From a virus: a stretch of 64,000 nucleotides of DNA. Position numbers and translations under genes: made by a program. Each line of letters starts with the position of its first letter. Within the stretch, counting starts at the first letter, position 1. This document shows positions 19,430 to 47,836 of the stretch, piece after piece. Location of the stretch: positions 1 through 64,000 of the IMG/VR virus record IMGVR_UViG_3300043419_002186. One strand, given 5' to 3'. Below the pieces are notes generated by a model. The model ran no database searches and was not told the DNA's origin. It worked only from the letters and a program-made list of their open reading frames with translations.

Positions 19430-19445
19430 AGCCGAATCGATTCGC

Positions 19446-20010: not shown

Positions 20011-20163
20011 ATGCCCAAGGCAAAGAGCGCGAAGGCGAAGGCCCATCAGGCGAAGTTCAAGAAGATTGCCCAGATGTGTCAGGCGCAGGTCGTCGGTGGT
20101 GGCAAAGGCCGCGCCAAGAAGGTCGGCGCGTGCATGAAGGCCGCGTTCAAGAAGGCCAAGTAA
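20011..20163 (+). CDS. 50-aa Lys-rich protein (not in ORF track)
   Basis: GGAG SD; MPKAKSAKAKAHQAKFKKIAQMC...ACMKAAFKKAK. Confidence 0.75.
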   Translation: MPKAKSAKAKAHQAKFKKIAQMCQAQVVGGGKGRAKKVGACMKAAFKKAK

Positions 20164-20166
20164 GCT

Positions 20167-20182
20167 GTCCACATTGACTTCC
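20167..20182 (+). promoter_or_regulatory. GTCCACATTGACTTCC, copy 2
   Basis: Exact repeat of 19446-19461. Confidence 0.6.
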
Positions 20183-20230
20183 CGACGCACCCACGGTGGG
20201 ATGCTCGGGCAACACAGGAAGGAGCACCAC

Positions 20231-20788
20231 ATGTACTCGGAAGGTCTGATGGGTCTGAAGGATGACGCGATGCGGGTCGCCAAGATTGGCGTCGGCATCG
20301 GTCTCGGCATCGCGGGCGCGAAGGTCGTCGATTCGATGATCCCGTCGTTCTCGTACTCGGAGTGGGTCAAGCCGCTCGTCCTCGTCGGCGCTGGCGCTGC
20401 CGTCTACGGCTTCGGCAAGGACAAGTCCTACGCCGCGTGGACCTCGTCGTTCGCCGCTGGCTGGACCGCGGTCGGTCTCGGCAAGCTCATCGGCGCCACT
20501 CTCGACGCCGCTGGCGCTGCCTCGGCCCCGGCGGGCATGGCTGCGAAGATCAAGGCCTACGTTCCGTTCGCGGGCGTGGACACCTACGACACCGGCCTCC
20601 TCGCGGGTCTCGGCTACGGCGGCTACAACGCGTCGGTCAGCCGCTACATGATGGCTGGCTCGCCCACGCAGGTGCAGCAGCTCATGGGCGCCCCGCTGCA
20701 GGTTCAGCAGCTCGCCGGTCTCGGCTCCAGCGTCCTCAACGGCGCGAGCGCGATGGCTGGCGCCCCGATGTCCGCGACTCTGGTCTAA
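20231..20788 (+). CDS. Multi-TM virion membrane protein
   Basis: AGGAAGGAG SD; three hydrophobic segments; C-terminal MAGSPTQVQQ/LMGAPLQVQQ/LAGLG repeats. Confidence 0.75.
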   Translation: MYSEGLMGLKDDAMRVAKIGVGIGLGIAGAKVVDSMIPSFSYSEWVKPLVLVGAGAAVYGFGKDKSYAAWTSSFAAGWTAVGLGKLIGATLDAAGAASAPAGMAAKIKAYVPFAGVDTYDTGLLAGLGYGGYNASVSRYMMAGSPTQVQQLMGAPLQVQQLAGLGSSVLNGASAMAGAPMSATLV

Positions 20789-20886
20789 CCTCCACTGAGG
20801 CCGAATCGATTCGGTCTCATCGACGACAACCCGACCCCAAGCGGGTCACGACTGAGCCGCGAGAGCGGCAGAAAGAGGCAAGGCAA

Positions 20887-21537
20887 ATGGCTATCCTTCG
20901 TGCGACTGATGAGACGGGCGTGTACGAGATCGAGGGCCTCGGCACCAAGATTCGTCTGCTGGAGTGGCGCGCCGGTTCGTTCTACGACACGGTGCAGTTC
21001 TCGTCGGGCGTCCAGACGCCGGGCGCGATCCAGCAGCTCTTCCAGAATCTCCAGAACAAGAACCGCCAGCATTCGAACCTCGACAACAACGCTGGCCGTC
21101 TGCCCGCGCTGAACGAGCTGATCACGAACCGCGTCGGCGCGCACATCCTGCAGGCCTTCGGCGCGACCCTCGCGCTCGACAGCGACATCATCCAGTTCGC
21201 TCACGCGGCGTACCTCCGCGTGTCCGTGAACCAGACCCGCCTGATCGCGGACGCCCCGCTCTACACGTTCCAGAGCGGCTACGGCGTGACGGGTTCCACG
21301 ACCCGCAACGGCACGGGCGTCGTGACCGTCGGCGTGCCGTCGGCCGCCGCTGCCCCGCAGCTCCTCGTCGCTCAGCCCATCGGGCCGAACGACTCCATCG
21401 GCACCGACTCGTACATCGCGCTCTACGCCAACACGTGGGCGAGCGCCTCGGGTCAGAACAACCCGGCGAACTTCGTGAACGCGGTGCAGGCCACCCTGTT
21501 CCTCGACGGTCTCGTCAAGAAGCCCGCCACGGCGTAA
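20887..21537 (+). CDS. Putative major capsid protein (single jelly-roll-like)
   Basis: 216 aa, beta-rich, strongly biased codons, long leader; FYDT...LF...K...SNL...GRLP...LFLDGL pattern; fold is inferred. Confidence 0.55.
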   Translation: MAILRATDETGVYEIEGLGTKIRLLEWRAGSFYDTVQFSSGVQTPGAIQQLFQNLQNKNRQHSNLDNNAGRLPALNELITNRVGAHILQAFGATLALDSDIIQFAHAAYLRVSVNQTRLIADAPLYTFQSGYGVTGSTTRNGTGVVTVGVPSAAAAPQLLVAQPIGPNDSIGTDSYIALYANTWASASGQNNPANFVNAVQATLFLDGLVKKPATA

Positions 21538-21641
21538 TCCGCCAAGGCGAATCGATTCCCGCTTGACGGCGGGAGTTGGTCAAGGAGGGCGATTGTCGCT
21601 ATCATGCGGCAGTCGCCCTTCGTCTTTCACAGGAGCACGTC

Positions 21642-22241
21642 ATGCAGATTGTTCCCCCGCCGCCCGACCAGTTCATCGAGACGCTGCGTTCGCGCATCGT
21701 TGAAGGTCGGACGTTCGACCCGTATCAGTACCGGCCCATCGTGATTCCGCTGCAGGTGCAGCTCGGGCCGACGGCGAGCGGCGGCTTCTCGCAGCAGGGA
21801 CAGGCGACGTTCGTCATTCCCTCGAACCAGCGTCTGCTGATTCGCCAGTTCCTGCCCATCATCACGCCCGTGGGCGTCGATGGCATCAGCGGCATGAGCA
21901 GCTCGCTCGATGCGACGAGCGGCGTGTTCAACGTCGGCGTCCCTGCGGTGGGCGACGTGCTCGCGGGCGGCACCGTGCTCGACCGCGTCCTCGGCAAGGC
22001 GCAGAACTGCCGCGTCTCCGTGTCGATGATCTCGTCCACGTTCCAGCTCTTCCCCCAGTACCAGTTCTCGCTGGGTGACCTCATCTCCACGAACTCGCCT
22101 GACACGCAGCTCGCGGACATGCCGGGAATCATCCCGCAGGGAACCACCATCGAGATGCTCGCTTCGCTGCAGGACGCGGGCGCTGCTGGCGCGACGACGC
22201 AGTACGGCATCGCCATCGTCGGAACCTACATCGCGGTCTAA
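21642..22241 (+). CDS. Second capsid-like beta protein
   Basis: AGGAG SD; 199 aa; ends TQYGIAIVG, paralogous to 22266. Confidence 0.5.
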   Translation: MQIVPPPPDQFIETLRSRIVEGRTFDPYQYRPIVIPLQVQLGPTASGGFSQQGQATFVIPSNQRLLIRQFLPIITPVGVDGISGMSSSLDATSGVFNVGVPAVGDVLAGGTVLDRVLGKAQNCRVSVSMISSTFQLFPQYQFSLGDLISTNSPDTQLADMPGIIPQGTTIEMLASLQDAGAAGATTQYGIAIVGTYIAV

Positions 22242-22265
22242 GCCGCAGCGAACAGGAGCTTCACC

Positions 22266-22889
22266 GTGGCTATCCTCACTCCCGCACCCCGGAACTTCCA
22301 GCAGCGCATCCGCTCGGAGCTGACCGAGGGGCTCGAACTCAGCTACTACGACATCATCCCGTCCATCCTGCACCTGCGCGTGACGCTGGAAGGGACGGGT
22401 GCTCGCCCCAACGTCCAAAACCCCGGTAGCGCGAGTGACATCTACCGCGTCGCTGGCGACTACAACTTCCTCATCAGCGAGATTCACGCTCACGTCGCGA
22501 TGAACCAGCTCTCGCAGGAGAGCACGGTCGGCGCGACGGGTCTGAACTCGCTCGTTGGCGTGCGCAACCGCACCGCGGTGAAGGCGATGAACGCGAAGGC
22601 GTTCCTCGTCAACCCCGACCGCAACGACCTGCGCTTCGTCGAGACGGACATTCAGAACAGCTCGAACCAGTTCGGTGGCTCGGTGATTTCGCCCCTCTCG
22701 CTCGGCTCGCTGATGCCCGAGTGCGGCGGCATGCCGATTCGCATGATCGACAAGGGCTACGTGATGCCCCTCATCGTTCCTGCGAACGAGCGCATCAAGA
22801 TGAGCGTCATCCTCCTCGACCCCAACGCGACCCTCGGGCAGACGGAGTATGGTCTGACCTGCGTCGGCGCACTGGTTCGCGCCCGCTAA
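22266..22889 (+). CDS. Third capsid-like beta protein
   Basis: AGGAG SD with GTG start; shares PxPxxF...RS, KAxN, SLGxL and TxYG with 21642. Confidence 0.5.
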   Translation: MAILTPAPRNFQQRIRSELTEGLELSYYDIIPSILHLRVTLEGTGARPNVQNPGSASDIYRVAGDYNFLISEIHAHVAMNQLSQESTVGATGLNSLVGVRNRTAVKAMNAKAFLVNPDRNDLRFVETDIQNSSNQFGGSVISPLSLGSLMPECGGMPIRMIDKGYVMPLIVPANERIKMSVILLDPNATLGQTEYGLTCVGALVRAR

Positions 22890-22904
22890 ACAGGGGTCCT
22901 CCGC

Positions 22905-24062
22905 ATGTCTTCGTACTCCTTCGGTGACGGAATCCTTCCTCCCATCAAGCGCAAGCCCGCTTCGACGCCTCCTGCGTCGGAGATGGCGCAGTCGTCCATT
23001 GCGCCCGCTCCTCTCGCGGGTCCGATGGATAGCCAGCACGTCGCTGTCCTTGAGGGCGTGGACCATGAGCAGCAGCTCGGGACCGTCATCAACCTCGCGC
23101 AGAAGCGGGAGCAGAAGACGGCACCGAAGAGCGCCCGAATCGATTCGGCGTTCAAGGAAGTGAAGGCTTCGCTCCCCCGCATGCCCTCCACCTTTCAGGT
23201 GACCGGCGGCGCGGGAGGAGCCAAGCCGAGCAGCTCGGGAGGAGTGAAACAGCTTTACGCGGAGTCGCAGACGGGAGGAGGCGCTCCTCCCTGCATGACG
23301 GTCTGCGACCTCGTTTACATCATCGAGGCCGCGAAGCGCAGTCGCGCGGTGACGGTGAACTTCCCCTCCACCTCGAAGCTCGGTGTGGCGCGGGCGCAGA
23401 CGCAGCTCGCTTGCGTTCCTCGCACGCTGAACGCGGACCAAGCGAAGGCCTTCGCCCCTCGGGCGCAGCAGATGCTCGATGCCATGCGCCCCTCGGGTCA
23501 GGACGTGGCCGAGTGCGTGGCTCGTTACTGCCGCGAGCACGGATGCCCCACGGACGGCGTGAAGGTCGCGACCATCGAGCAGGTCTGCCAGCTCGTCTTC
23601 GCCATCAAGGCGGCGCAGTACGGCCGTTCCTTCAGCATGAGCGTGAACGGCTCGAACGCCACGCTCTCCGCGGAGCAGATGAGGGAGCAGGGCCCCCGCA
23701 TCGCCGCCACGCTCAAGGCGATGCTCGACAAGGGGCTCACGACTTCGGACGTGATCGCCGCGTGCGAGAAGAAGTACTGCGAGCAGTACGGCTGCGCTCC
23801 TTCTGCGACGACGACGACGACGGGCGGGGGAACGGGCGCGGGTGCCGGTGCTTCCTGCCCCGAAGGCACGCACTTCGACATGGCGAGCGCCGAGTGCGTT
23901 CCCAACGATGTGCCCGTCGCCAAGGTGGACACGGGGAAGAAGGGGTTCGGCTGGCTCGCGGCTGCTGGTGTCGCCGCGGTCATCGCGAAGAAGGTTCTGT
24001 TCGTGTCCGCGCTCGCTGGAGCGCCCAAGCTGGTCGAACTCGAAGACGAAGACGAGGAGTGA
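22905..24062 (+). CDS. Membrane-anchored Cys-rich protein with duplicated domain
   Basis: Two VCxLVxxIxAA...PR...LxAM...CxxxYCxxxGC units; CPEGTHFD...CVP; C-terminal TM. Confidence 0.7.
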   Translation: MSSYSFGDGILPPIKRKPASTPPASEMAQSSIAPAPLAGPMDSQHVAVLEGVDHEQQLGTVINLAQKREQKTAPKSARIDSAFKEVKASLPRMPSTFQVTGGAGGAKPSSSGGVKQLYAESQTGGGAPPCMTVCDLVYIIEAAKRSRAVTVNFPSTSKLGVARAQTQLACVPRTLNADQAKAFAPRAQQMLDAMRPSGQDVAECVARYCREHGCPTDGVKVATIEQVCQLVFAIKAAQYGRSFSMSVNGSNATLSAEQMREQGPRIAATLKAMLDKGLTTSDVIAACEKKYCEQYGCAPSATTTTTGGGTGAGAGASCPEGTHFDMASAECVPNDVPVAKVDTGKKGFGWLAAAGVAAVIAKKVLFVSALAGAPKLVELEDEDEE

Positions 24063-24065
24063 AAG

Positions 24066-25046
24066 ATGCGCGCCCCCAAGTACCCGCTCATGCCCGCCAC
24101 GCTGCAGGGCCTCGCTGGACGCCCCATCACGGGAACCACCATCGCTGACGTGGTGCGCGCTCAGAAGGACGCGCTGCTCTACTCGGACAGCCGCGTGCCT
24201 CTGACGGGGCAGTACTACGACAAGTTCCGTGCGACGCAGCAGGTGCGTACCCGCGCTCCCGCGGAGTTCACGAACGCGCAGGTGCGCGGCATCAACAACA
24301 AGGCGGGTGGCGTGAAGAGCTTCGCCGCCGCGACCTACAGCTACCCGTCGGGGCAGATGGTCATCGGCGCCGCCCTCGCGGGCATGGACGTGTCCACGCA
24401 GACGAGACTTGCGCGCTCGCGTCTCGCGGGCCTCGGTGCTGCCACGTTCGATGATTCCAACATCGACACCTCGCGCATCTCCGCTGGTGTCCTTGGCTTC
24501 GGCGCCGATGAGGAAGATGGCGCCGTCTGTGGCAAGGACTCGGGCAAGGGCGGCTGCGTGCAGGTGAAGGTCAACCGCGTCCGCAAGGCGCTCGCCGCGG
24601 CCGGGAAGGACCCGAACAACGACGCCGCGGTCCTCTACTTCGGCGCGATGCGCTGGGGCACCATCGACTCGCTCACGAAGGCCGTGCAGCAGTACTGGGA
24701 CCTCTTCCTCAAGGGAGAGCGGGCCCCGGACAGCAACTACGCAGACCTTCTCGGAGAGGCGAAGAAGATCGCGGAGAAGGCCGACAAGGTCATAAGCGAC
24801 CCGACCGTGCAGAAGGGCATCTCGACCGTCTCTCAGTACACGGGCAGCGGCGTCAGCCCGATGGGCACCTATCGCCCGCTCCCCGGTGCTCGCTCCATCA
24901 GCACCACCGCGGCGCAGGTCTCCGAATCGGTTCGTCGCGCGGCGCTGCCCCCTGAACGAAGCAGTGGCATGGGCATCGGCACCGTCGCCATCGGAGCCGC
25001 TGTCCTCGTCGGTGGCTTCTTCGCCTACAAGGCCTTCGCGAAGTAG
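24066..25046 (+). CDS. Putative virion membrane protein
   Basis: C-terminal TM; several LxG(L)xG motifs. Confidence 0.7.
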   Translation: MRAPKYPLMPATLQGLAGRPITGTTIADVVRAQKDALLYSDSRVPLTGQYYDKFRATQQVRTRAPAEFTNAQVRGINNKAGGVKSFAAATYSYPSGQMVIGAALAGMDVSTQTRLARSRLAGLGAATFDDSNIDTSRISAGVLGFGADEEDGAVCGKDSGKGGCVQVKVNRVRKALAAAGKDPNNDAAVLYFGAMRWGTIDSLTKAVQQYWDLFLKGERAPDSNYADLLGEAKKIAEKADKVISDPTVQKGISTVSQYTGSGVSPMGTYRPLPGARSISTTAAQVSESVRRAALPPERSSGMGIGTVAIGAAVLVGGFFAYKAFAK

Positions 25047-25055
25047 GAGCCCCAA

Positions 25056-26693
25056 GTGCAGATGATGCCGCGACAGCTCGCGGGCCTTGGCGCAGGTCCC
25101 AAGGACGCGCTCAAGCCCGAAGAGCTGCCCAGCGGCATCCTCTTCATCTACCCGCGCTACGTGCTCAAGGTGCTCGGGGACCTCCTCGATGCACCTGAGT
25201 CGCTGGCGCAGATTCAGGCGTGGTCCTACGACCCGCCCGAATGGGTGAAGAAGAAGAACAAGCTCGGTCAGGATTCGTACCGTCTCGCGGCTTTCCTTCG
25301 CACGCGTCTGAACTTCCGAATCCCGAAGAACTGGTTCGACAGTCAAATCGATTCGGACGCTTCGCTCGTCATCGAGGGGAAGCGCAAGTACTCGGATGTC
25401 TCGACCGAGACGCTGGCCGAGTGGGCGACGAACCCGCCGCCTTGGAGGCCTTGGAACCGCGACAGGGACATCACGGCCGTCGTGATGCCCGCGATTCTGT
25501 GGGCGCAGCGCATCGTCTCCGCTCGCGCTGGCTTCGACATCCCGTTCTTCGTGGACAGCTCCATCGAGGAAATCTCCGACGACTTGGTCCGTGCAAACGA
25601 CAAGGACCTTCTCGACTGGGTCGAAGCTCTCTGCAACATGCTCACAAGCTGGGGCATCAGCTCAGCGAATGCAGCGGGCAAAGAGGTTACGAAGCAGGTC
25701 GTCGAGAAGACAGCGACTCAGACGGCGAAAGATGCGGCCCCCGGTCTTTGGGAACAGGCGAAGAAGAAGGCACTTGAAGAGGGGACGAAGGAAGCCAAGC
25801 GCGCCGGAACGGCGCTCATCCGCAAGGGCATCTCCGAGACGGGCGACCTGCTCACGCCCGATGGGGCATCGACCTTCGCGAAGGAGGGTATTCAGTCCGC
25901 TGAAGCAGGTGTCACTTCTGCAGCGCTCGCCTTTGCCTTCGCCTCGACGCCCATCGGATGGGTCTCTCTCGCTGCCATTGCCGCGGCTCCCGTCCTCTGC
26001 TGGGGAGCGAAGAGCTACGCCCTCAAGCTCATCAAGGACAACCTGCGAGACTGGCATCCCGACTTCGTCCCCACGTTCATCGGCAGCGTGTACCAGAAGC
26101 GCTTCGGCATCGTCCCCGGCGCGGATGTCATCTCGAACCTCGACCAGCGCTACTCGGCTCTCATCAGCGCGAACAGCATCGCGAAGGCCGTCGCCTCTCC
26201 CGAGAACGACCCCGCGGTCCTCGCCGCGGTGACGAAGCGGCAGAACGAGATTCAGGCCACCATCACGAAGTCGCTCGACTACTTCGGATGCAAGACGCCG
26301 AACCCTGACCGGGTGGCCGCGTTCGCAGACCGCGCCTTCAACAACTTTTGGTCTCCCGAAGAAATCAACCGGCGCGTCTACAACGAGAAGGCGTGGCTCT
26401 GCAGCGCCAGCTCCATCAAGGAGCTGCGCACCATCGTCATGCGGCCTGCCATCTCCTCTGCCGCTGCCCGCATCACGAAGGCCGTTGCGGCGATGCGCAA
26501 CAGCATCAAGCCCCCCATCGCTCCCGTGACCCCCTCGGGCAAGCCCCCCGTAGGCCCTGTGCCTCCCGCAGGGCCCGCGAAGGGCGGCATCGGGCCCGCG
26601 CTCGCTCTCGCCACTGGCGGCTTCTTCGTCGGCGGCCCTCCCGGTGCTGGCATCGGATTCGTGCTCGGCCTCATGGCCGGAAAGAAGAAGTGA
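25056..26693 (+). CDS. Large membrane protein (possible entry protein)
   Basis: Central hydrophobic hairpin, Pro-rich linker, C-terminal GGFFVGGPPGAGIG glycine zipper. Confidence 0.7.
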   Translation: MQMMPRQLAGLGAGPKDALKPEELPSGILFIYPRYVLKVLGDLLDAPESLAQIQAWSYDPPEWVKKKNKLGQDSYRLAAFLRTRLNFRIPKNWFDSQIDSDASLVIEGKRKYSDVSTETLAEWATNPPPWRPWNRDRDITAVVMPAILWAQRIVSARAGFDIPFFVDSSIEEISDDLVRANDKDLLDWVEALCNMLTSWGISSANAAGKEVTKQVVEKTATQTAKDAAPGLWEQAKKKALEEGTKEAKRAGTALIRKGISETGDLLTPDGASTFAKEGIQSAEAGVTSAALAFAFASTPIGWVSLAAIAAAPVLCWGAKSYALKLIKDNLRDWHPDFVPTFIGSVYQKRFGIVPGADVISNLDQRYSALISANSIAKAVASPENDPAVLAAVTKRQNEIQATITKSLDYFGCKTPNPDRVAAFADRAFNNFWSPEEINRRVYNEKAWLCSASSIKELRTIVMRPAISSAAARITKAVAAMRNSIKPPIAPVTPSGKPPVGPVPPAGPAKGGIGPALALATGGFFVGGPPGAGIGFVLGLMAGKKK

Positions 26694-27493
26694 TGGGACC
26701 GAATCGATTCGCACTTGGATGCTGGGACAAGGACGACGCGCTCGGCTGCACTCCCGAGATGCCGCCACCCGTGCTCGGCAACGCGTTCACCGACAAGCTC
26801 AAGTCCATTCCTCCGAAGGGCTGGCTCGCCATCGGCGGCGCGGCGCTGCTCATCCTGCTCATCGCGAAGCGCAGGACCGTGGCCACTGCCGCTCAGAGCG
26901 TCGCTGAGCGTGCCAAGGAAGCTGCGCAGAGCCTCGTCGGTGCGTTCCTCACCCTCAACGCCATCCGCAAGGCGATGCCGAACGTGAGCCTCGCCAAGGC
27001 GACTTCGCTGCTGCCCGACCTGACGCTCGCGCTGGACGAGGCGAACATCAACACCCCGAAGCGCGTCGCCGCGTTCCTCGCGCAGGTGGGACACGAATCA
27101 GGCGACTTCCGATACATGGAGGAGCTGGCGAGCGGCGCTGCCTACGAGGGACGCAAGGACCTCGGGAACACGCAGCCCGGGGACGGCAAGCGTTTCAAGG
27201 GCCGTGGTCCCATCCAGCTCACGGGGCGCTCGAACTATCGCGCCTTCACGAACGCCATCGGCAAGAAGTACGGCGTGGACTTCGAGAAGAACCCGGAGCT
27301 GGTCGCGGACCCCCGCTGGGGCTTCAAGGCGGCGTCGTGGTTCTGGAACTCGAAGAACCTCAACAGCTACGCGGACAGGGGTGACTTCAACTCCATCACC
27401 TACCGCATCAACGGCGGCTACAACGGGAAGGCCGACCGAGACAAGCGTTATGCTATCGCCTCCGCGGCACTGATGCCGGTGGGCAACGCGTAA
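26693..27493 (+). CDS. GH19 chitinase-fold muramidase with N-terminal TM anchor
   Basis: AAFLAQVGHESG, FKGRGPIQLTGRSNY, INGGYNG; TM WLAIGGAALLILLIA. Confidence 0.9.
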   Translation: MGPNRFALGCWDKDDALGCTPEMPPPVLGNAFTDKLKSIPPKGWLAIGGAALLILLIAKRRTVATAAQSVAERAKEAAQSLVGAFLTLNAIRKAMPNVSLAKATSLLPDLTLALDEANINTPKRVAAFLAQVGHESGDFRYMEELASGAAYEGRKDLGNTQPGDGKRFKGRGPIQLTGRSNYRAFTNAIGKKYGVDFEKNPELVADPRWGFKAASWFWNSKNLNSYADRGDFNSITYRINGGYNGKADRDKRYAIASAALMPVGNA

Positions 27494-27505
27494 CAGGGGA
27501 AGAGC

Positions 27506-27712
27506 ATGGCAGCACAGGGGCAACCGAAGGTCCTCCAGACGATGAAGTTCAAGACGTCGCAGGAGGCGCAACAGAAGCTGATGCAGCTCGGCGCACGGTT
27601 CCGCATGAGGGACACCGCCACGGGGGGGCTGCTCTACAAGACACCTGCAGGAGTGGTCCTGCGAGTTCGCCAACCTGACGCAGTCGAGGTACTATCGAAC
27701 TGCGTCTGCTGA
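27506..27712 (+). CDS. Hypothetical protein
   Basis: GGGAAG SD; fits between neighbours. Confidence 0.6.
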   Translation: MAAQGQPKVLQTMKFKTSQEAQQKLMQLGARFRMRDTATGGLLYKTPAGVVLRVRQPDAVEVLSNCVC

Positions 27713-27726
27713 AACAGGAGTGAGTC

Positions 27727-28311
27727 ATGGCCGAAATGATTGCGATGCTGGGTGGTCTCGGAAGCTCGGGGTGCGTGGGCTGCTCGTCGGGCCGTGCGCT
27801 CTCCATCAACGGGGCCCCGATGACCCCTGAGCAGGAGATGCTGGCCGCTCGCGCGGGCACCATCAGCTCCAGCCAGTACAGCCCCCGCCTCGCGGGCGCG
27901 CCCATGACTCCCTCCATCGCCGCCTACATGGCGCGTCGTGGCGAGATGGCTTCCGCGCAGTACAACCCCAACCTCGCTGGTGCCCCCATGAGCGTCGCAG
28001 AAGAGGCCCGCGCTGCGCGGGCGAACGTCATCGTCTCACAGCAGTACAACCCGAACCTCGCGGGCGTGCCGACCACGGCGCTCTCCGTCGCGGATCAGGT
28101 GCGTGCGAAGGCCATCACCAGCGCTCCGTACTACATGAAGCGCAGCGTCAACCCGTACTCGATGCTGACGAAGGGTCAGGCCGGGACGCTGCAGGGCATG
28201 GGCGACTGGTGGTCCTCGCAGTCCACGACCATGAAGGCCGTCTACGCCACCGCGGGCATCGTTGCCGCTTGGTGGGGCGTCCCGAAGCTCGTTCGCGCGG
28301 TGCGAGGCTAG
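27727..28311 (+). CDS. Membrane protein with three 28-aa repeats
   Basis: GAPM...AR...SxQYxPxLA repeats; C-terminal TM. Confidence 0.75.
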   Translation: MAEMIAMLGGLGSSGCVGCSSGRALSINGAPMTPEQEMLAARAGTISSSQYSPRLAGAPMTPSIAAYMARRGEMASAQYNPNLAGAPMSVAEEARAARANVIVSQQYNPNLAGVPTTALSVADQVRAKAITSAPYYMKRSVNPYSMLTKGQAGTLQGMGDWWSSQSTTMKAVYATAGIVAAWWGVPKLVRAVRG

Positions 28312-28313
28312 TC

Positions 28314-28559
28314 ATGTACCGACCCCACGACATCATCGCGAGCGGCTCGCACCGCAAGCCGATGGCCATCGAGGTCATGAGCCTCAACGGCATGCAGCCG
28401 GGGCTCTCGCGTGCTCAGGCCGCGAGCCTCACCGCTGTCACCGTCAACGGCCTCATGGGCCTTGGCGCTGAGCCCGACGAGACGAAGCAGCCTCTGTGGC
28501 CCATCCTCGCTTTCGCCGCTGTCCTCGGCGTCGTCCTTTGGAAGAAGAACCTCTACTGA
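28314..28559 (+). CDS. Small membrane protein
   Basis: LMGLG motif, C-terminal TM, then KK. Confidence 0.7.
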   Translation: MYRPHDIIASGSHRKPMAIEVMSLNGMQPGLSRAQAASLTAVTVNGLMGLGAEPDETKQPLWPILAFAAVLGVVLWKKNLY

Positions 28560-28569
28560 GGCTGCTGTC

Positions 28570-28830
28570 ATGCCGACCGCGAAGCTGATGGAGCTGCTGT
28601 CTCACCCCATCGCTCTCGACGCCTTCGACTCCCTCTCCAAGGGCTCACACCCTCAGAGCGTTCTCGCGGGCATCGCGTCGGACATGGCAGCACTGAAGAT
28701 TCGTCAGCTCCTCGGCGGCGTCGAGAAGGACGAATCGATTCGCTCGAAGAAGGATGACATCGTGGACGCGGAGTACACCGTCATCGACGTGACCCCCGGC
28801 GTGAAGCGGCGCACCACGAAGGAGAAGTGA
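28570..28830 (+). CDS. Hypothetical protein
   Basis: GAGG SD; IVDAEYTVIDV tail. Confidence 0.65.
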   Translation: MPTAKLMELLSHPIALDAFDSLSKGSHPQSVLAGIASDMAALKIRQLLGGVEKDESIRSKKDDIVDAEYTVIDVTPGVKRRTTKEK

Positions 28831-28831
28831 C

Positions 28832-29077
28832 ATGCCCTCGAAGAAGAAGTGCAAGTTCGGCCTGAACAAGCGCACGAAGAAGTGCCTCAAGCACCCGCGC
28901 AAGAAGGCCGCTGGCACTCGCAAGAAGGCTGCTGCTCCGAAGAAGCGCCGAAGCGCGGGCACGATGGACTGGCTCACGAAGGGGCGAAAGCCCGCGCGCG
29001 TCACCCGCAGGGGTGGCATGACGATTCGGGAGTACTCTCCCGAGGACTCGATGAAGGCCATCTACGGCGAGTGGTGA
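28832..29077 (+). CDS. Lys-rich Cys-containing protein
   Basis: MPSKKKCKFGLNKRTKKCLKHPRKK. Confidence 0.7.
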   Translation: MPSKKKCKFGLNKRTKKCLKHPRKKAAGTRKKAAAPKKRRSAGTMDWLTKGRKPARVTRRGGMTIREYSPEDSMKAIYGEW

Positions 29078-29090
29078 GAAGGGGACTCTG

Positions 29091-29375
29091 ATGACTGCGC
29101 GGCTCTACTACATCTTCATGGACGGATGCGGTGCCTGTCAGATGGCGAAGCCCGAGCTGAAGAAGTTCGAGCGCGCTCACCCCGAGGTTCAGGTCGTTCC
29201 CGTGAACCTGCTCACGGTCGGGGACAAGTGGAAGCACGACTGGAAGCCGGAAGCGACTCCCACCTACGTGCTCGAAATCCCGGGGCATGAGCGCACGCGC
29301 TACGAGGGCGCGCTCATGGCGAAGCACATCGAGCAGTTCATCCGAAAGTCGAAGCAGATGATCGGAGCCCAGTGA
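29091..29375 (+). CDS. Thioredoxin-like protein
   Basis: CGAC active site and a TPT cis-Pro motif. Confidence 0.85.
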   Translation: MTARLYYIFMDGCGACQMAKPELKKFERAHPEVQVVPVNLLTVGDKWKHDWKPEATPTYVLEIPGHERTRYEGALMAKHIEQFIRKSKQMIGAQ

Positions 29376-30718
29376 TGTTCAAGAAGAAGAAGAGCGCGGG
29401 CCTCGCGGGCGTCGAATCGATTGGCGACGACAAGTACTGCGTGGGCGCCAACCCCGACGCCAAGGTCAACATCTCCGCGGCTCGTTGGGCTCTCGACTTC
29501 CTCGAACGTCGCGCGGAAGAGGACCCGTGGTTCAACGGGACGACGCTCATCTTCCACTCGGGGCAGGTGAACTACACGAAGCATCAGCTCGTCGCTGAGA
29601 AGTTCAACACCTTCGGTCCCCGCGTCTCTCTCAACGAGGACGTCGCTCGCGGCATCGCGTGCACGCCCGCGCTGAACCCTGTCGCTGCTTCGGGCAAGAA
29701 GGGCGTCGCACTCACGCAGACGACCCCGTTCATCTACAAGACGCCGCTGCTCGCGGCGAAGTTCATCGAGGTCTGCGGCGAGAACGGCGAGAAGTGCCGA
29801 GGGCACAAGGACCTTGAGAAGCTCCTGCTGCAGCTTCGCTCGAAGGGAGCGCTTCGACCTGAGCACAAGCGCGCTGGCATGAAGGGCTTCTCCGCTTCCG
29901 TCCCCGCGGGCTTCGTCGGCTGCGACCCGAAGAAGCCGGTCAAGAAGCCCTACGCCGTCGGCTTCGGCACGAAGATTCGCGAGCTGGTGCGTGAGTACGC
30001 GGGAGACCCCAACGCGGTTGCCGTGGACCGTCACATCGCCGCTTGGGTCTGCAAGCACTACGGAACGTCGAGCCCCGAAATCAAGCAAGCGTGCCATGGC
30101 GCGTTCGCTGCGATGAGGCTCGAAGACGAGCAGAAGAAGTACGCGGTGGACTCCAAGAAGTGGAAGTCGCTGCAGAGGAAAATCGACAAAATCGAGGACA
30201 AGACCAGTGCTTCGGTCGGTGCCTACGAGGAGTCGAAGAAGTACTCCATGCTCAAGAGCGTCGTCGCGGACGAGGCCAAGAAGTGCGGCGTCTCTCCCGC
30301 GCTGCTGCAGGTGGGCGCGTGGTTCAAGCAGACCTGCCGCGTCGGCGGGAAGAACGAGATGGTGTGGCTCGGCGCGAAGCGCAAGCTGCGCGAGGACGAA
30401 GACCCCGCGTGCGAGCTGGAGAAGGAAATCGTCGATGCCTGTGCCTCGGACTCGATGATTCACGGCTCCATCGGCTTCTGCGACGCGGACAGGAAGAAGA
30501 AGTTCTGCAACGCGTTCGCCATCCGCAAGGCCAAGATTGCGAAGGGGGAGATTGACCCCGACGCCGTCGGCAAGAAGAAGAGCAGGAGCAGGAAGGGAGC
30601 CAAGAAGGGCTCGAAGAAGGGGAAGGCGCTCAGCGGTCTCTCCTCCTCGGACATGGGCAAGGGCTGCTCCGTCGCCGGTCGCAAGGCTGTCCTCTCGCTC
30701 CTCGACAGGGCCATCTGA
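29372..30718 (+). CDS. HhH DNA-glycosylase-like protein with Lys-rich tail
   Basis: GFGTKI...VAVDRH...SPALLQVGAW resemble HhH-GPD motifs. Confidence 0.5.
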   Translation: MMFKKKKSAGLAGVESIGDDKYCVGANPDAKVNISAARWALDFLERRAEEDPWFNGTTLIFHSGQVNYTKHQLVAEKFNTFGPRVSLNEDVARGIACTPALNPVAASGKKGVALTQTTPFIYKTPLLAAKFIEVCGENGEKCRGHKDLEKLLLQLRSKGALRPEHKRAGMKGFSASVPAGFVGCDPKKPVKKPYAVGFGTKIRELVREYAGDPNAVAVDRHIAAWVCKHYGTSSPEIKQACHGAFAAMRLEDEQKKYAVDSKKWKSLQRKIDKIEDKTSASVGAYEESKKYSMLKSVVADEAKKCGVSPALLQVGAWFKQTCRVGGKNEMVWLGAKRKLREDEDPACELEKEIVDACASDSMIHGSIGFCDADRKKKFCNAFAIRKAKIAKGEIDPDAVGKKKSRSRKGAKKGSKKGKALSGLSSSDMGKGCSVAGRKAVLSLLDRAI

Positions 30719-42684: not shown

Positions 42685-44232
42685 TCACTGCCCGTCGTCG
42701 AAGGCCTCGACCACGTCCCTCGCCCACGCGGGCGTCGGGGAGGACGACTTGCGGACGAGGACGACGACGACCTCGCCAGCACCCTGCGGCTTCGTCGCGG
42801 GCCACCCCGTGTCGCCGTCGGTGAGGACGAACGTCAAGTGAGGCTTCACCTTCGCGACCTGCGCCACGCCAGCGCCCATGTCGGTGCCGCCGCCGCCGAC
42901 AAGCTGGTCTCGGATGTGCCCGACGACCTGCGACCCGTCCTTCAGCTTGACCGGCGTCGTCGGCCTCACGTCGCACGCGACCATGTAGGCCTCTTCGACG
43001 CCCCCCGCCTTGAGGATGCCGACGACCTCGCAGATGGAGTCGGTGATGCTCTTCGAGCCCATGGACCCCGACGTGTCGAAGACGAGGCCCACGCGCACCT
43101 TCGGCTTGAAGAGCGAGGGGAGCACCATGCCGAAGTGCGCTCCCACGCGGCTCGGCTTCGTCATCGTGAAGTCGGTCGCGCCCTTCGCGATGCCGATGCC
43201 GCGGCGGGTGATACTCGCGAGGCGGGCTCGCCAGTCCACCTTTGGCGGCTTGAGCACCTCTTCGGCCCACTGCTTGAGGCCCGCGGGCATGTCGCCTCGC
43301 CCCTGCTCCGCGTGCTTCTTGACCGCCTCCGCGGTCTGCTTTCGAATCGATTCGACCTCGTCGGGCGTGTAGCCGTTCGGCAGCGACTGCCCCGACGCCT
43401 TCGCGTCGTCGGCCAGCTTGTCGGTGTGCTCGGTGTCACCCGCGCAGCCGCCGCAGGAACGCTGCCCCGCGGGCTTCGGGGGCACGGGGACCGGCTTCGA
43501 GCCGCCGCCCTGCCCGCTCTGCGGGGACTGCGCGCCGCCCTCGCCCTCGCCGTCGCCCTCGCCATCCTGCGGGTCGCCCTCGCCCTTCTCGCCCTGCCCG
43601 CTCTGCGGCTTGCTCTGCTGCTGCCCCTGCTGCGGCTTGCCCTGTCCACCCTGCTGCGGCTGCTGCGGAGGCGGCGGCTGCTGGGCCAGCTTCGCGATGA
43701 CGGCGCGGTAGAGCGCGACGATGGACACCGTCTCCGCATTGCCGTCAATCGGGTCCACGTCAGCGTGCGTGAGCCCGTAGCGCTTGAGCACACTCTCGAC
43801 GGTGACGAAGCCGCAGGTCTCGAAGTCGGCCTTCGTCTTGACGACGTGACCGAAGGGGCGCAGACGGCCGCCGCTCGCGATGATGACTTCGCGGAGGACG
43901 ACGTTGCCGATGGCGTCGCCCAGTTCGTTCCACAGGCGACGGTGCTCGTCGGGGATGCACTGCGTGCGAGCCATGCCGAAGTGGTCGGGCATGAGGTGGA
44001 CGAGAATCTCATGCGCAATGTCCGCGGCCAGTTCCTCGGGCGCGATGGCCAGCGTGCGTGCCTCGTCGTGGAATATCTGCCGCTTCTCGTTCGCGGAGAA
44101 GCTCTTGCCGTAGTTCGGGACGTGGACGTACTGCAGAGCCTGAAGTTCCGGCTCGACGTACGGCATCGACTTGCGGATAAGCTGCCTTGCGATGGCGAGT
44201 TGGTCGCCCACCGTCTTGCCCTTCATGGCCAT
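42685..44232 (-). CDS. Metallopeptidase-like plus VWA protein (DUF2201-type)
   Basis: AHEILVH; Gln/Gly linker; VDWR; DTSGSM MIDAS; GGGGTD; LTDG. Confidence 0.9.
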   Translation of the reverse strand: MAMKGKTVGDQLAIARQLIRKSMPYVEPELQALQYVHVPNYGKSFSANEKRQIFHDEARTLAIAPEELAADIAHEILVHLMPDHFGMARTQCIPDEHRRLWNELGDAIGNVVLREVIIASGGRLRPFGHVVKTKADFETCGFVTVESVLKRYGLTHADVDPIDGNAETVSIVALYRAVIAKLAQQPPPPQQPQQGGQGKPQQGQQQSKPQSGQGEKGEGDPQDGEGDGEGEGGAQSPQSGQGGGSKPVPVPPKPAGQRSCGGCAGDTEHTDKLADDAKASGQSLPNGYTPDEVESIRKQTAEAVKKHAEQGRGDMPAGLKQWAEEVLKPPKVDWRARLASITRRGIGIAKGATDFTMTKPSRVGAHFGMVLPSLFKPKVRVGLVFDTSGSMGSKSITDSICEVVGILKAGGVEEAYMVACDVRPTTPVKLKDGSQVVGHIRDQLVGGGGTDMGAGVAQVAKVKPHLTFVLTDGDTGWPATKPQGAGEVVVVLVRKSSSPTPAWARDVVEAFDDGQ

Positions 44233-44265
44233 GTCGGACCTCCCGCCCCTTGGGGCGCTACCGTT

Positions 44266-44340
44266 GCGTGGGCTTGGGACCACGCTTGCGGGTTACACCG
44301 CGGAGTGAATCGATTCGGATTCACCCCGCGGCCCCTCACC
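44266..44340 (-). ncRNA. Twister-like self-cleaving ribozyme A (circularly permuted)
   Basis: GGU GAGGGG [P1 hairpin] UGU^AA CCC GC AA GCGUGG UCCCAAGC CCACGC. Confidence 0.8.
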
Positions 44341-44347
44341 GTTCGAC

Positions 44348-45457
44348 CTACGCGACCGTCTGAACCCCGAAGAGCTTCAGGTTCGCCGCCGCCTCGTTCT
44401 TCGTGCTGGCGCGGGGGTTGCCGCTCTTCGAGGAGCGCCACACCTGCAGCGGGCTCGAAGCGCTCGTCGCGAAGTCGCCCTGCCCGACGTTCGCCGCGGA
44501 GAGGATGACGCCCCACGCTGCATCGACGAGGAACTCCCGCTCCTTCGCGTTCGCGGCGAGCCCGTTCACGGCCTCGATGGCGCAGCCCGCGATGACGGGG
44601 TACACGTAGTCGGGGCGCGACGCGTCGGGCTTCCAGTCCACCGCGCCCGTGAGGACGTCGCGGGGCTTGGGCAGGTTCGCGCTCTTGACGTACTCACGGA
44701 ACGGACGCCCGTGGCCCTTGCCCACCGTGGCAGAGACCAGTTCGAGCCCCGACTCGGGGTCGCCGTCGCGCAGCGCAGCCGCGTAGAGGGCGCACGCGGC
44801 GTCCCACGCACGCGGGGACGGCCACGCGCCGCTGCGCTTGGACTCGTCCGCGGGGAATGCGAGCAGGGCCTTCTCCCCGAAGTGCGAGACGTAGCCGCCG
44901 ACAAGCTGCGCGGCTCGCTTGTCGAAGTCGTCGCCGTTGACGCGGTCGGTCATGAGCCACGTGGCCCACTCGGTCGGGCTCGGCACGTCGGCTTCGAGGT
45001 GGACGAGCCGGTTCGCCGCCGCGGGGGGCAGTTCGTTGCCCGCGGTCGTCATCTGCACGGGGTTCGCGGCGAGGACGATGCGCACGTCGGGGTGCAGGGG
45101 CACGTCGCCCACGACGCGTTCGAGGACGACGCGCAGCAGGGCGGACCACGTCGCGGGGCTCGCGAGCGTCGCCTCGTCAATAAACAGGGTGCCACCCTTC
45201 GAGAGCGCGGAGACCATGGTCGGCGCGAGCCGCTTGGTCTCGCCTTCCTGCGGGAAGGGGATGCCGCAGTAGTCGGTGGGGTCGGAGAGGGCGGGCATCG
45301 AGACCCACAGCGGGACACTGTCGGCCTTGGCGCCCCAGTAGCTGCGGTGCAGCGCCTTCATCATGGCGCTCTTGCCGATGCCGGGGGCACCGACGACGAA
45401 CGGGACACGGTTCGCCTTCATCGAGAGCAGCGCGAGCTTCATCCAGTGGGTGGCCAT
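44348..45457 (-). CDS. MoxR-like AAA+ ATPase
   Basis: GAPGIGKS, LFIDE, AAN, ANRLVH, PSPRAW. Confidence 0.9.
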   Translation of the reverse strand: MATHWMKLALLSMKANRVPFVVGAPGIGKSAMMKALHRSYWGAKADSVPLWVSMPALSDPTDYCGIPFPQEGETKRLAPTMVSALSKGGTLFIDEATLASPATWSALLRVVLERVVGDVPLHPDVRIVLAANPVQMTTAGNELPPAAANRLVHLEADVPSPTEWATWLMTDRVNGDDFDKRAAQLVGGYVSHFGEKALLAFPADESKRSGAWPSPRAWDAACALYAAALRDGDPESGLELVSATVGKGHGRPFREYVKSANLPKPRDVLTGAVDWKPDASRPDYVYPVIAGCAIEAVNGLAANAKEREFLVDAAWGVILSAANVGQGDFATSASSPLQVWRSSKSGNPRASTKNEAAANLKLFGVQTVA

Positions 45458-45513
45458 CGTCTCTACCTTCCCGCCCCGTAGGGCGCGCACCGTGCGGCAT
45501 GCACGGTGACCGT

Positions 45514-45583
45514 GACTGGACTTGGGACCAGTCGGTGCGGTTACGCCGCGGGGCGAATCGATTCACCCCGCGGTCCCTCACGC
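45514..45583 (-). ncRNA. Twister-like ribozyme B
   Basis: GCGU GAGGGA [P1] CGU^AA CCGC AC C GACUGG UCCCAAGU CCAGUC. Confidence 0.8.
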
Positions 45584-45588
45584 TTCTC

Positions 45589-46074
45589 TCACTCCCCCTG
45601 CTCGGGGTCGCCAAGCCCCGCCGCGAGCATGAGTTCGCGGACGACGACGGCGTAGCTGTTCTCCGAGTCCATCTGCCCCCACGCGTGCTGCAGCGACTCG
45701 GCCAGCATGCGCCAGTCTCGCCCCGTGAGCGTCACGCTGCGCGTCTGCGGCTGCGCGTCGAGGCGCCGCTGCTGCTCGGCGCGGGCCCTGTCCGCGGCCA
45801 CCTCGGCGTGCCGCTTGTAGTGCGCGAGAATGCGGGCGACGAGGCTCTCGGTCTCCTTTATCCCGTGACGCTCTTCCCGATGAAGCAGCGAGTCGAGGTG
45901 GTCGTCGAAGGCGACCGCGTCGCAGAAGAGCAGGGTGACCTTGTCTTCGAGTTCGTCTCGCGCAGCGTCATCGAGCTTCGCCGCGGCTCGGACCATGCGG
46001 CGGCCGATGAAGAGGGCACGGTTTATGATGCGGTCCTGCGTGTCGTTCGCGAGCGTGTGCTGCTGCGTGTCCAT
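45589..46074 (-). CDS. Hypothetical protein
   Basis: AGGAAGG SD; helical. Confidence 0.7.
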   Translation of the reverse strand: MDTQQHTLANDTQDRIINRALFIGRRMVRAAAKLDDAARDELEDKVTLLFCDAVAFDDHLDSLLHREERHGIKETESLVARILAHYKRHAEVAADRARAEQQRRLDAQPQTRSVTLTGRDWRMLAESLQHAWGQMDSENSYAVVVRELMLAAGLGDPEQGE

Positions 46075-46124
46075 GTGCTGCCTTCCTGCCCCGAAGGGCC
46101 ACCCGCCGACGCGGCGGGGACGAC

Positions 46125-46195
46125 GGACGGACTTGGGACCGTCCTGTGCGGTTACACCGCGGCGAACCGAATCGATTCACCACGGCCCCTCACGC
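46125..46195 (-). ncRNA. Twister-like ribozyme C
   Basis: GCGU GAGGGG [P1] UGU^AA CCGC AC A GGACGG UCCCAAGU CCGUCC. Confidence 0.8.
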
Positions 46196-46199
46196 TTGG

Positions 46200-46373
46200 T
46201 TATCGGTGCTGGCTCACGTACTCCGTCCACGCCGTGTCGAACCACTGGCGCTCTTCGGCCTGTCGGCGGGCACGCCGGATGCGGGCGCTGCGCGCTTCGT
46301 CGGCCCTCGCCCGCTTGTCGGCCTCACGGGAGGCGACGGTCTCGTACTGCGCGAACGTCCTGCAGCCCTTCAT
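46200..46373 (-). CDS. 57-aa Arg-rich protein (not in ORF track)
   Basis: GAGGA SD plus leader hairpin; MKGCRTFAQYE...EYVSQHR. Confidence 0.65.
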   Translation of the reverse strand: MKGCRTFAQYETVASREADKRARADEARSARIRRARRQAEERQWFDTAWTEYVSQHR

Positions 46374-46406
46374 GGCTTTCCTCTCTGCCCCTTGGGGCGG
46401 TGGTGG

Positions 46407-46637
46407 TTACGGGCCCCCGAAGTCCTCGCCTCGGGGTCCCCATGCGTCGTGACGGGCCGTGAATAGGTGCTGCTCAAAGGCCTCCAACAGGGCGCGCTGC
46501 GCGTCCGACAGGGGCTCGCCGCGCAGTGCCGCGGCGATGCCGTCGTGCAGGTCGCACGCCTCGCGCTCGTTGACGACAAGTTCGACTTCGATGCACGGGG
46601 CCGTGTCGGTGCACGTGAGCAGGGTCTCGGGCTTCAT
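46407..46637 (-). CDS. Hypothetical protein
   Basis: GAGG SD plus leader hairpin before MKPETLL. Confidence 0.6.
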   Translation of the reverse strand: MKPETLLTCTDTAPCIEVELVVNEREACDLHDGIAAALRGEPLSDAQRALLEAFEQHLFTARHDAWGPRGEDFGGP

Positions 46638-46665
46638 GGCTTGCCTCTCTGCCCCGTAGGGCGTG

Positions 46666-46731
46666 CGCACGGGCTTGGGACCGTGCATGCGGGTTACACC
46701 CCCACCCGTGCTGGCATGGGGGCCCCTCACC
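46666..46731 (-). ncRNA. Twister-like ribozyme D
   Basis: GGU GAGGGG CCCCCA...UGGGGG UGU^AA CCC GC A UGCACGG UCCCAAGC CCGUGCG. Confidence 0.78.
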
Positions 46732-46738: not shown

Positions 46739-47836
46739 CTAGGCGGCGGCGCTGTCCGCGGGGGCCGCGGCGAGGCCTTCGAGCGCGGCCTTGCCGAAGA
46801 GCGCCTCGAACGCCGCCTTCGTCGGGAAGGCGCCCGCGGGGGCCGCAAGGTCCTCACCCAGCACCCAGCGCATGGCGAACATGACGCCCTGCGCAAAGCC
46901 CGCGCTCTTCGCGTCCTCGGGCTTGGGGAAGGCCAGCGTCTGCGTGCGCGCCTTCGTGAGCATGGCGCGCAGGTCGGCCTCCGCGGGGCGCCCCTTCGCC
47001 GCCTTGCGGGGCGCAACCGTCGGGGCCTTGCCCGCCTCGGCCTCGGCCTCGGCGCGGATGGTCTTCAGCGCCTCGGTCGAGACCTTGACCTTCGTCTCGC
47101 CGGTCTCGGTCTTCACGACGCGGGCGTCGGCCTTGCGGGAGCCCGTCTTCGAGGACGTCTTCCCCGAAGGCGAGGCCTTCGCCTCTGCGACGAGCGCTTC
47201 GACCTTGGCCGCGATGACGGGCTGCACTTCGGGGGCGGCGCGGGCCGCGATCTGCGCGGGGGCCATGTCGAGCGTGCCGTCGGTGACGAGGGCCTTCACC
47301 TCGGCCGTGGCCGACTTGTCGATGCCGAAGATGGAGACGACGGTGTCCTGCGGCTTGCCGAAGGCCTCCGCAATGTCGGGCAGCGTCATGCCAGCGGCGA
47401 GCATGCGCTTAGCGTTCGCCGTCTGCGCGGCGAGGTCGTCGTCGATACGGTGCGCGTTCGCCTTGACCTGCAGACGCAGCGCTTCGAGGCCCGTGGCCTT
47501 CGAGACGATGCAGGGGGCGAGGACGAGGCCCGCGGCGAGAGCGGCGCGCATGCGCTGCTTGCCGTTGATCACCTTGTAGCTCTTCGAGCCGTCGGCGCTC
47601 GGCGTCTCGGAGACGAGGAGCGACTGCAGGATGCCGTCGCGGCCGACGGACGTGACGAGGAACGGCGCGACAGGGGCTTCGATGCGCGGGTCGTAGTCCA
47701 CCGCGGCGGTGTCGGTCTCGAACCACAGCTTCGAGAGCGGGAGCATGACGACCTCGCCGCTGGCGAGGCTCTCGACGGGGACTGCGGGCGACTGCGTGAC
47801 GGTCTCGGTGCTCTTCGTGCTCTTCTTCGTGGCCAT
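46739..47836 (-). CDS. ParB/Srx-domain protein with HTH
   Basis: GILQSLLV...INGKQRMRAA (GxxRxxA), ANAHR, GMTLPDIAEAFGK. Confidence 0.85.
   Translation of the reverse strand: MATKKSTKSTETVTQSPAVPVESLASGEVVMLPLSKLWFETDTAAVDYDPRIEAPVAPFLVTSVGRDGILQSLLVSETPSADGSKSYKVINGKQRMRAALAAGLVLAPCIVSKATGLEALRLQVKANAHRIDDDLAAQTANAKRMLAAGMTLPDIAEAFGKPQDTVVSIFGIDKSATAEVKALVTDGTLDMAPAQIAARAAPEVQPVIAAKVEALVAEAKASPSGKTSSKTGSRKADARVVKTETGETKVKVSTEALKTIRAEAEAEAGKAPTVAPRKAAKGRPAEADLRAMLTKARTQTLAFPKPEDAKSAGFAQGVMFAMRWVLGEDLAAPAGAFPTKAAFEALFGKAALEGLAAAPADSAAA

Follow-up and report, generated by a model that had tools for sequence, protein, structure and literature searches.

Four predicted type-P5 twister ribozymes at the gene junctions of a ParB-to-VWA block in an uncultivated phage

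The virus record IMGVR_UViG_3300043419_002186 is an uncultivated phage genome of 85,791 bp with terminal repeats, estimated to be complete; the DNA analysed, referred to below as the window, is its first 64 kb. A gene map based on GC content at third codon positions (GC3) shows a long block of co-oriented minus-strand genes, in the order ParB-like protein, g76, g57, g161, AAA_5 ATPase and VWA-like DUF2201 protein, and four intergenic elements lie inside it on the same strand: D (46731-46666), C (46195-46125), B (45583-45514) and A (44340-44266). Each element begins 3-8 nt past a stop codon (TAG at 46741-46739 for D, TAA at 46202-46200 for C, TGA at 45591-45589 for B, TAG at 44350-44348 for A) and ends 5' of the Shine-Dalgarno sequence (SD) of the next gene. 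An initial annotation, made from the letters alone, had placed four minus-strand elements at just these positions and had proposed that they are circularly permuted twister ribozymes. The positions are reproduced here, and the identification is borne out by full-length matches to the corresponding Rfam family and by covariation among 59 copies: at the level of sequence, the four elements are confirmed as type-P5 (circularly permuted) twisters. The block thus holds several same-strand candidate ribozymes, four copies at four of its ParB-to-VWA junctions.

In twisters a loop CCC pairs with the GGG of strand L1 (pseudoknot T1), the last two loop bases pair with the dinucleotide that follows P2 (pseudoknot T2), and cleavage separates a highly conserved A adjoining P1 from the less conserved U before it (PMC5408937). 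Every copy in the window is laid out in one order: P2 5' strand, GAGGG, closed P1 hairpin, G, U^AA, P2 3' strand, T2 dinucleotide, and P4 with its loop UCCCAAG(C/U). In copy D, P2 is GGU (46731-46729) with CCC (46693-46691), GAGGG of L1 occupies 46728-46724, the P1 hairpin spans 46723-46698, G(-2) is at 46697 and the predicted cut falls at 46696/46695; T2 joins GC (46690-46689) to GC (46674-46673), and P4 (46687-46681 with 46672-46666) encloses the L4 bases UCCCAA (46680-46675). Copy C has a P2 of GCGU (46195-46192) with CCGC (46151-46148), GAGGG at 46191-46187, a P1 hairpin (46186-46156) that carries the palindrome GAATCGATTC at its tip, G(-2) at 46155 and a predicted cut at 46154/46153, followed by T2 as AC (46147-46146) with GU (46132-46131) and P4 at 46144-46139 with 46130-46125. 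The same P2 sequences recur in copy B (45583-45580 with 45540-45537), together with GAGGG at 45579-45575, P1 at 45574-45545 with the palindrome at its tip and an A.C closing pair, G(-2) at 45544, a predicted cut at 45543/45542, T2 as AC (45536-45535) with GU (45521-45520) and P4 at 45533-45528 with 45519-45514. Copy A returns to GGU (44340-44338) with CCC (44292-44290); its GAGGG lies at 44337-44333, P1 with the palindrome at its tip at 44332-44297, G(-2) at 44296, the predicted cut at 44295/44294, T2 as GC (44289-44288) with GC (44273-44272), and P4 at 44285-44280 with 44271-44266. All four copies have the stems P1, P2 and P4, arranged in the P5-permuted order and with a loop closing P1, and the conserved loop bases GAGGG, U^AA and G-UCCCAAG-Y-C (positions listed from PMC5408937 and the Rfam consensus line) are intact in all of them. 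The four U^A sites named in the initial annotation are, by alignment, the sites at which a twister would be expected to cut.

The initial annotation's account of the differences among the copies could be retraced base by base: the P4 stem sequences differ in all four copies (three columns vary) with pairing kept; T2 is GC:GC in A and D but AC:GU in B and C, with a G-C pair exchanged for A-U; and P2 is GGU/CCC in A and D and GCGU/CCGC in B and C, one pair changing from G-C to C-G, with a U.C opposition in each. T1 consists of three Watson-Crick pairs, GGG of L1 with CCC of the P4 loop, in every copy. A fourth T1 pair that had been suggested, between the U of UCCC and the purine after GAGGG, is not favoured: this purine is matched to the pyrimidine at -3, and solved twister structures show the loop U paired to an A of the loop (PMC5408937). 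In the folds predicted for the four stop-to-start regions, P1 and P4 are the dominant features. No P5 closing stem that is consistent across copies was found between the 5' and 3' flanks, by eye or in the folds. The initial annotation had counted this as a departure from the twister core, which it is not: type P5 is open at P5 by definition, and the Rfam model and the other phage copies likewise do without that stem.

The relevant Rfam family is Twister-P5 (RF02684, clan CL00120), with a model of 58 positions and a gathering threshold of 37.6 bits. A scan of the whole window against Rfam gave a single above-threshold match, Twister-P5 on copy D (38.9 bits). In a permissive regional scan with RF02684 all four copies align to model positions 1-58 of 58, at 38.9 (D), 36.2 (A), 28.7 (B) and 27.7 bits (C), that is, with per-genome E-values of 4.6e-8, 2.2e-7, 1.9e-5 and 3.3e-5. 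In the full 85.8-kb genome the RF02684 matches are exactly these four, on the coding strand and at gene junctions; a genome-wide scan of the remainder found neither another Rfam match nor a tRNA. On the minus strand the exact core GGTCCCAAG is confined to the four element sites. As a control, 14 well-known genomes were scanned with RF02684: seven have sub-threshold matches at E<=1, and none of the 14 reaches the cut-off. A chance origin of the four Rfam matches is excluded. (Two technical notes: copy C scores 85.5 bits against R1, the covariance model built here, a self-match by construction; and a plus-strand match of R1 at 45545-45574 was rejected, as it is merely the palindromic P1 read in reverse.)

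To collect further copies, virus, metagenome and genome collections were scanned with sequence patterns and then with a covariance model made from the four copies, a search that had been called for at the outset. It yielded 87 matches, 59 of them distinct (phage and metagenome), a sample that is biased to the subtype described below since the search patterns derive from it. Across the 59 copies 94.7% of pair cells form standard pairs, versus 64.5% with shuffled partners (0 of 500 shuffles reach the observed value), and sliding the partners by 1-3 columns leaves 25-46% paired. By stem, the paired cells amount to 98.2% for P1, 99.1% for P4 and 89.7% for P2, figures to be read with the knowledge that the alignment was fitted to the nested structure and so favours these stems. 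The pseudoknots lie outside that model and provide an independent test. In T1 97.6% of cells are paired, and each of the three positions shows double-sided changes (GAGGA/UUCC, GAGAG/UCUC, GAAGG/UCCU, GACGG/UCCG, GAUGG/UCCA, GAGUG/UCAC and GAGCC/CGGC are examples). T2, with its register set in each sequence by the size of P2 (three or four positions), is Watson-Crick in 53 of 56 copies, where shuffling gives 23.3 on average (0 of 2000), its pair types being GC:GC in 29, AC:GU in 17, CC:GG in 4, GG:CC in 2 and CG:CG in 1. The genome collection contributed one contig that matches the subtype pattern (JBAYGD010000023.1 = Ga0172379_10001391, 48,311 bp, labelled as a Candidatus Omnitrophota metagenome-assembled genome and entered as L060/L063); that match was not recovered by the regular-expression parse, the covariance model or Rfam, and is probably due to chance.

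The four window copies belong to a subtype of 17 distinct copies, the others lying on contigs L005, L062, L064, L065, L066, L068 and L070. Its innermost P2 position is always U.C, where other phage copies have A-U, G-C or U-A. It also lacks the C that follows GAGGG in canonical copies, where this C pairs with the G before U^AA in 19 of 19 rows; G(-2) is therefore unpaired in the subtype. That disposes of one point in the initial annotation, which had counted three rather than two nucleotides before the cut: the extra base is real, and it is the normal G(-2) deprived of its partner. The suggestion of an undescribed variant holds up only in a limited sense: a recurrent subtype does exist, situated inside type P5 and with its deviations confined to P1 and P2. 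The pair that closes P1 is G:U in 9 subtype copies, A:C in 5, G:C in 2 and A:U in 1, against A-U or G-C in canonical copies (Fisher p = 0.035, the rows not being independent); G.U and A.C are two pairs with matching wobble shape. A register shifted by one base, with the U pairing to A(+2), was considered and rejected: the C-G versus G-C change of P2 in B and C favours the U.C register. Within the subtype a four-position P2 is found only in window copies B and C; in arrays of high-scoring copies three-pair and four-pair P2 coexist inside single arrays, and a 3-bp P2 is common there. Subtype scores with RF02684 run from 27.7 to 45.8 bits, straddling the threshold.

On several unrelated contigs the subtype copies have varying stems around a retained core, and T1 covariation is seen in two of them. 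Retention of the core amid varying stems, together with the covariation of T1 and T2, implies selection on the tertiary fold, which is relevant only for catalysis. In high-throughput assays, natural twisters tolerated bulges in P1 and mismatches or deletions in P2 well, while the pseudoknots and catalytic bases proved sensitive (PMC11662667), and the window copies deviate only at places tolerated in those assays of type-P1 ribozymes. In the searchable literature no description of this subtype was found, the original twister papers being known through reviews only. (Contig L064 supplies two copies with rewired T1: GAGCC with CGGCAA at 7324-7393 on the minus strand, where the loop U is also changed to C, and GAGUG with UCACAA at 5165-5236 on the same strand. 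Similar hairpins, with AAUCAC-like loops, come after every L064 twister. In L005 an SD, GGAGG, comes only 1-3 nt after P4.)

The genes that the elements separate are as follows, all on the minus strand. The unit 5' of twister D encodes a ParB-like protein of 365 amino acids (aa) (46739-47836; Pfam ParB_N, E 6.5e-7; PHROG ParB-like, E 1.2e-16). Between D and C (46200-46637) lie g76 (46637-46407) and g57 (46373-46200), and between C and B lies g161 (45589-46074), none of the three with a family match. An AAA_5 or MoxR-like ATPase of 369 aa (44348-45457; Pfam AAA_5; phrog_1297, E 1.6e-38) occupies the interval between B and A, and the first gene 3' of A encodes the VWA-like DUF2201 protein of 515 aa (42685-44232; Pfam PF09967, E 1.7e-12; phrog_1314). 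Motif scans and folds (for D, minimum free energy (MFE) and centroid) place one or two hairpins between each ribozyme and the next gene: after D, a small GC hairpin with a UACG loop abutting the g76 SD (46644-46661); after C, a 7-bp hairpin (46118-46102) and then a UUCG-loop hairpin with the g161 SD (46098-46081; together 46081-46118); after B, an 8-bp hairpin (45508-45488) and then a UACG-loop hairpin with the ATPase SD (45483-45466; together 45466-45508); after A, a CCCC-AA-GGGG hairpin with the SD GGGAGG of the VWA-like gene (44239-44255). The small GC hairpin (CCC/GGG stem; loop UACG, UUCG, CACG or AA) adjoins a purine-rich SD at at least nine genes of the block, with minus-strand sites at 47864, 46661, 46397, 46098, 45483, 44255, ~42630, 41586 and 40959, only four of which are preceded by a twister. 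It resembles the start-associated sequences of some mycobacteriophages. Scans between the block genes found no terminator-like site of note and no sigma-70-like promoter, which is weak evidence, since the host's promoters may be of another type. Orientation, spacing and the lack of recognisable terminators suggest that the block genes are co-transcribed.

Beyond the block, the large proteins of 920, 1163, 545, 448, 330 and 385 aa on the plus strand in 8196-31954 have no PHROG family match, and no terminase, portal or capsid was recognised. When the region was compared by megablast with 50,697 phage records, nothing matched, and tblastn of the DNA polymerase against the same records gave nothing above 26% identity. 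By these comparisons the virus is very distant from cultivated phages.

The palindrome at the P1 tips of twisters A, B and C is a separate matter. GAATCGATTC is 10 bp long and amounts to two overlapping GANTC sites plus ATCGAT. It has 59 exact copies in 85.8 kb, roughly one every 1.45 kb against an expectation of about 2 per 64 kb, and these are found within genes and intergenic DNA alike (44307, 45555, 46169, 47877, 40967 and 36423 are examples in the window); one lies ~36 nt upstream of the ParB start. Because its flanks seldom extend the repeat, it probably acts at the level of DNA, as a site where a protein binds or methylation occurs. In the twisters it is a genome-wide DNA motif lodged in a sequence-tolerant part of the ribozyme.

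How widespread is the arrangement? Same-strand Twister-P5 arrays of 14, 9, 8, 6 and 5 copies, most of the copies at 40-63 bits, are present on other virus contigs. The largest (G006, at 16170-29766 of the contig of L007, IMGVR_UViG_3300029286_000074, a phage contig of lower GC) packs its 14 copies into ~14 kb; the others are G001 (9 copies), G002 (8), G007 (6) and G004 (5). Arrays made up of the subtype only occur on L064 (4 copies), L070 (3) and L068 (2), where the upstream stop codon stands in or against the P2 5' strand and the ribozyme is followed by a hairpin and then the next gene. These contigs have no genes in common with the window's operon: ten operon proteins, compared by tblastn with the other twister-bearing loci, found no match there. 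The ATPase has homologues on metagenome contigs that are 42-57% identical, and it was through the ATPase alignment that syntenic relatives came to light (a search with the ATPase alone gave none). Two are true syntenic relatives, L073 (IMGVR_UViG_3300032213_002371) and L074 (IMGVR_UViG_3300034198_014730), with g552, g329, ParB, ATPase, VWA, g295, g330 and g370 in common, in the same order and at 24-67% identity. Neither has a twister or a ribozyme of any other family. Their junctions hold hairpins and GAATCGATTC instead, in L073 ten copies in 11 kb, one per examined junction. Twisters D, C and B bracket a region of variable small genes: g76 and g161 have no counterpart in L073 or L074, and g57 has a weak one only. 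Because the syntenic relatives are without twisters, the window's ribozymes appear to be a lineage-specific gain at junctions that already carried GAATCGATTC.

We consider it likely that the four elements are functional type-P5 twisters of one recurrent subtype, each of which would cleave at U^A while it is being transcribed or shortly afterwards. As the long minus-strand message emerges, each intergenic RNA would fold into P1 hairpin, short P2 and P4 hairpin, locked by T1 and T2, and would cut itself between U(-1) and A(+1), at 46696/46695, 46154/46153, 45543/45542 and 44295/44294. The upstream piece would end in a stable P1 hairpin with a 2',3'-cyclic phosphate; the downstream piece would begin with 5'-OH-AAC and continue through the P4 hairpin and one or two more hairpins to the SD. 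This end chemistry is what the known twister mechanism predicts (PMC5408937). Of the twister permutations it is type P5 that sets a hairpin on either side of the cut. The message would be divided into five units (ParB; g76 and g57; g161; ATPase; VWA and onward) with structured, protected ends, and the stability and translation of each would be independent of upstream sequence. Such an effect, and any physiological benefit, may be presumed, with the fate of the 5'-OH end depending on host RNases; self-cleavage, 5'-OH products and the "early" timing put forward in the initial annotation are presumed likewise.

Several observations weigh against this reading. Copies A, B and C, three of the four, score under the gathering threshold of RF02684 that D exceeds. 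P2 has two (A, D) or three (B, C) Watson-Crick pairs plus U.C where the consensus has four, and one structural paper, reviewed in PMC5408937, suggests that the active site might be disturbed when the length of P2 changes. The tolerance data of PMC11662667 come from type-P1 permutants only, and their transfer to type P5 is inferred. In copy C the nested MFE fold (46202-46072) pairs the strand of GAGGG and the start of P1 with the 5' half of the downstream SD-adjacent hairpin, possibly a competing fold, one that is absent from the other three copies. And L073 and L074 have the same gene order without a ribozyme; cleavage is therefore not required for the operon.

Could the elements, then, be twister-derived relics in which cleavage is absent or negligible, persisting as intergenic structure (mRNA-end-protecting hairpins or RNase sites) that carries the palindrome? 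The three sub-threshold scores, the shortened P2 with its U.C opposition, the lost partner of G(-2), and relatives that handle the same junctions with hairpins and palindrome alone would all fit. We nonetheless regard this as quite improbable: none of the four copies has lost a conserved loop base; T1 and T2 are both retained, one of the two through a compensatory double change; unrelated contigs conserve the same subtype, in which the stems vary and both pseudoknots covary; and the P1 and P2 flaws are of a kind that experiment shows to be tolerated (PMC11662667). A still less credible proposal, that GC-rich intergenic repeats (REP-like or terminator hairpins) resemble a twister by chance, can point to a GC-rich genome with many intergenic hairpins and a dispersed palindrome, and to the sub-threshold matches at E<=1 in 7 of the 14 control genomes. 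It is effectively refuted by four full-length matches (E 4.6e-8 to 3.3e-5), all of them on the coding strand and at junctions, by the presence of both pseudoknots, by the restriction of GGTCCCAAG on the minus strand to the four sites, and by the failure of any control genome to reach the cut-off.

A different kind of alternative grants activity and asks what it is for: the chief significance of the ribozymes may be that they join exchangeable gene cassettes, or that they are semi-selfish modules spreading between phages, with segmentation of the operon a by-product. The syntenic relatives without twisters, the position of D, C and B around small genes with no counterpart (g76, g161) or a weak one (g57), the lack of shared operon genes on other twister-bearing contigs and the recurrence of one subtype on unrelated contigs all lean this way. 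Twister A does not, since it lies between the conserved ATPase and VWA genes; nor does the exact placement from stop codon to SD, which suits a role at the RNA level. No recombination breakpoints and no repeats beyond the ribozymes were found, and we know of no mechanism of exchange. On balance we think a role of this kind unlikely, and prefer functional twisters that segment the message.

One may go a step further and imagine that the U.C/missing-C subtype is a functionally distinct subclass of twister, in which the invariant unpaired G(-2) and a closing pair that is mostly G.U or A.C tune the cleavage rate or make cleavage dependent on conditions (pH, for example), and in which P1 doubles as a DNA site for protein binding or methylation and as an RNA helix. 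We offer this as a speculation that is probably wrong; were it true, the dual role of P1 would link a genome-wide DNA system to RNA processing.

Processing of phage messages into gene-sized units has precedents. The early polycistronic mRNA of phage T7 is cut by RNase III at intergenic hairpins into gene-sized mRNAs with structured ends. There the enzyme is the host's and the ends are 5'-phosphates, whereas the window's RNA would self-cleave, its new ends bearing a 5'-OH and a cyclic phosphate. The synthetic insulator RiboJ, attributed to Lou and colleagues in 2012, reportedly strings together a self-cleaving ribozyme, a hairpin and a ribosome-binding site and so strips upstream context from the downstream gene; it is engineered and based on a different ribozyme, and the likeness is functional only.

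Nearer precedents come from natural ribozymes. Tandem hammerheads were described in prophage-like regions in 2011, and all of these ribozymes cut native polycistronic transcripts of ~2 kb in vitro (Perreault et al., PMC3088659). As in the window, where activity is predicted, several same-strand self-cleaving ribozymes flank the genes of one polycistronic unit in a phage context; the ribozyme class is another one, and the window adds conserved hairpins before the SD. With type-P5 twisters as a class (RF02684; Roth et al. 2014, reviewed in PMC5408937) the window copies share element order, loop bases, pseudoknots and the predicted U^A cut, departing from the consensus in having two or three Watson-Crick pairs plus U.C in P2, not four, and an unpaired G(-2). 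Reviews have remarked that twisters occur near phage genes and may process polycistronic messages (PMC6765202, PMC8782182), and the biological role of the twister is still largely speculative (PMC5408937, PMC6765202). A description of twister arrays between phage genes was not found in the searchable literature, in which the original twister papers are known through reviews only.

The elements are, then, additional copies of a known ribozyme family in an arrangement proposed earlier, not a novel kind of element: the proposal that ribozymes punctuate operons dates from 2011, and twister arrays are widespread among virus contigs. That the phage is uncultivated, the family known and the arrangement both proposed and widely recurrent limits the value of the locus. 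Since the scores of the conserved subtype lie near the Rfam threshold or under it, such ribozymes are undercounted in routine annotation. The locus itself is a clean natural test case: a complete phage genome has an intact copy at each of four defined junctions, and syntenic relatives that carry the same genes and no ribozymes furnish a natural comparison of a phage operon with and without them.

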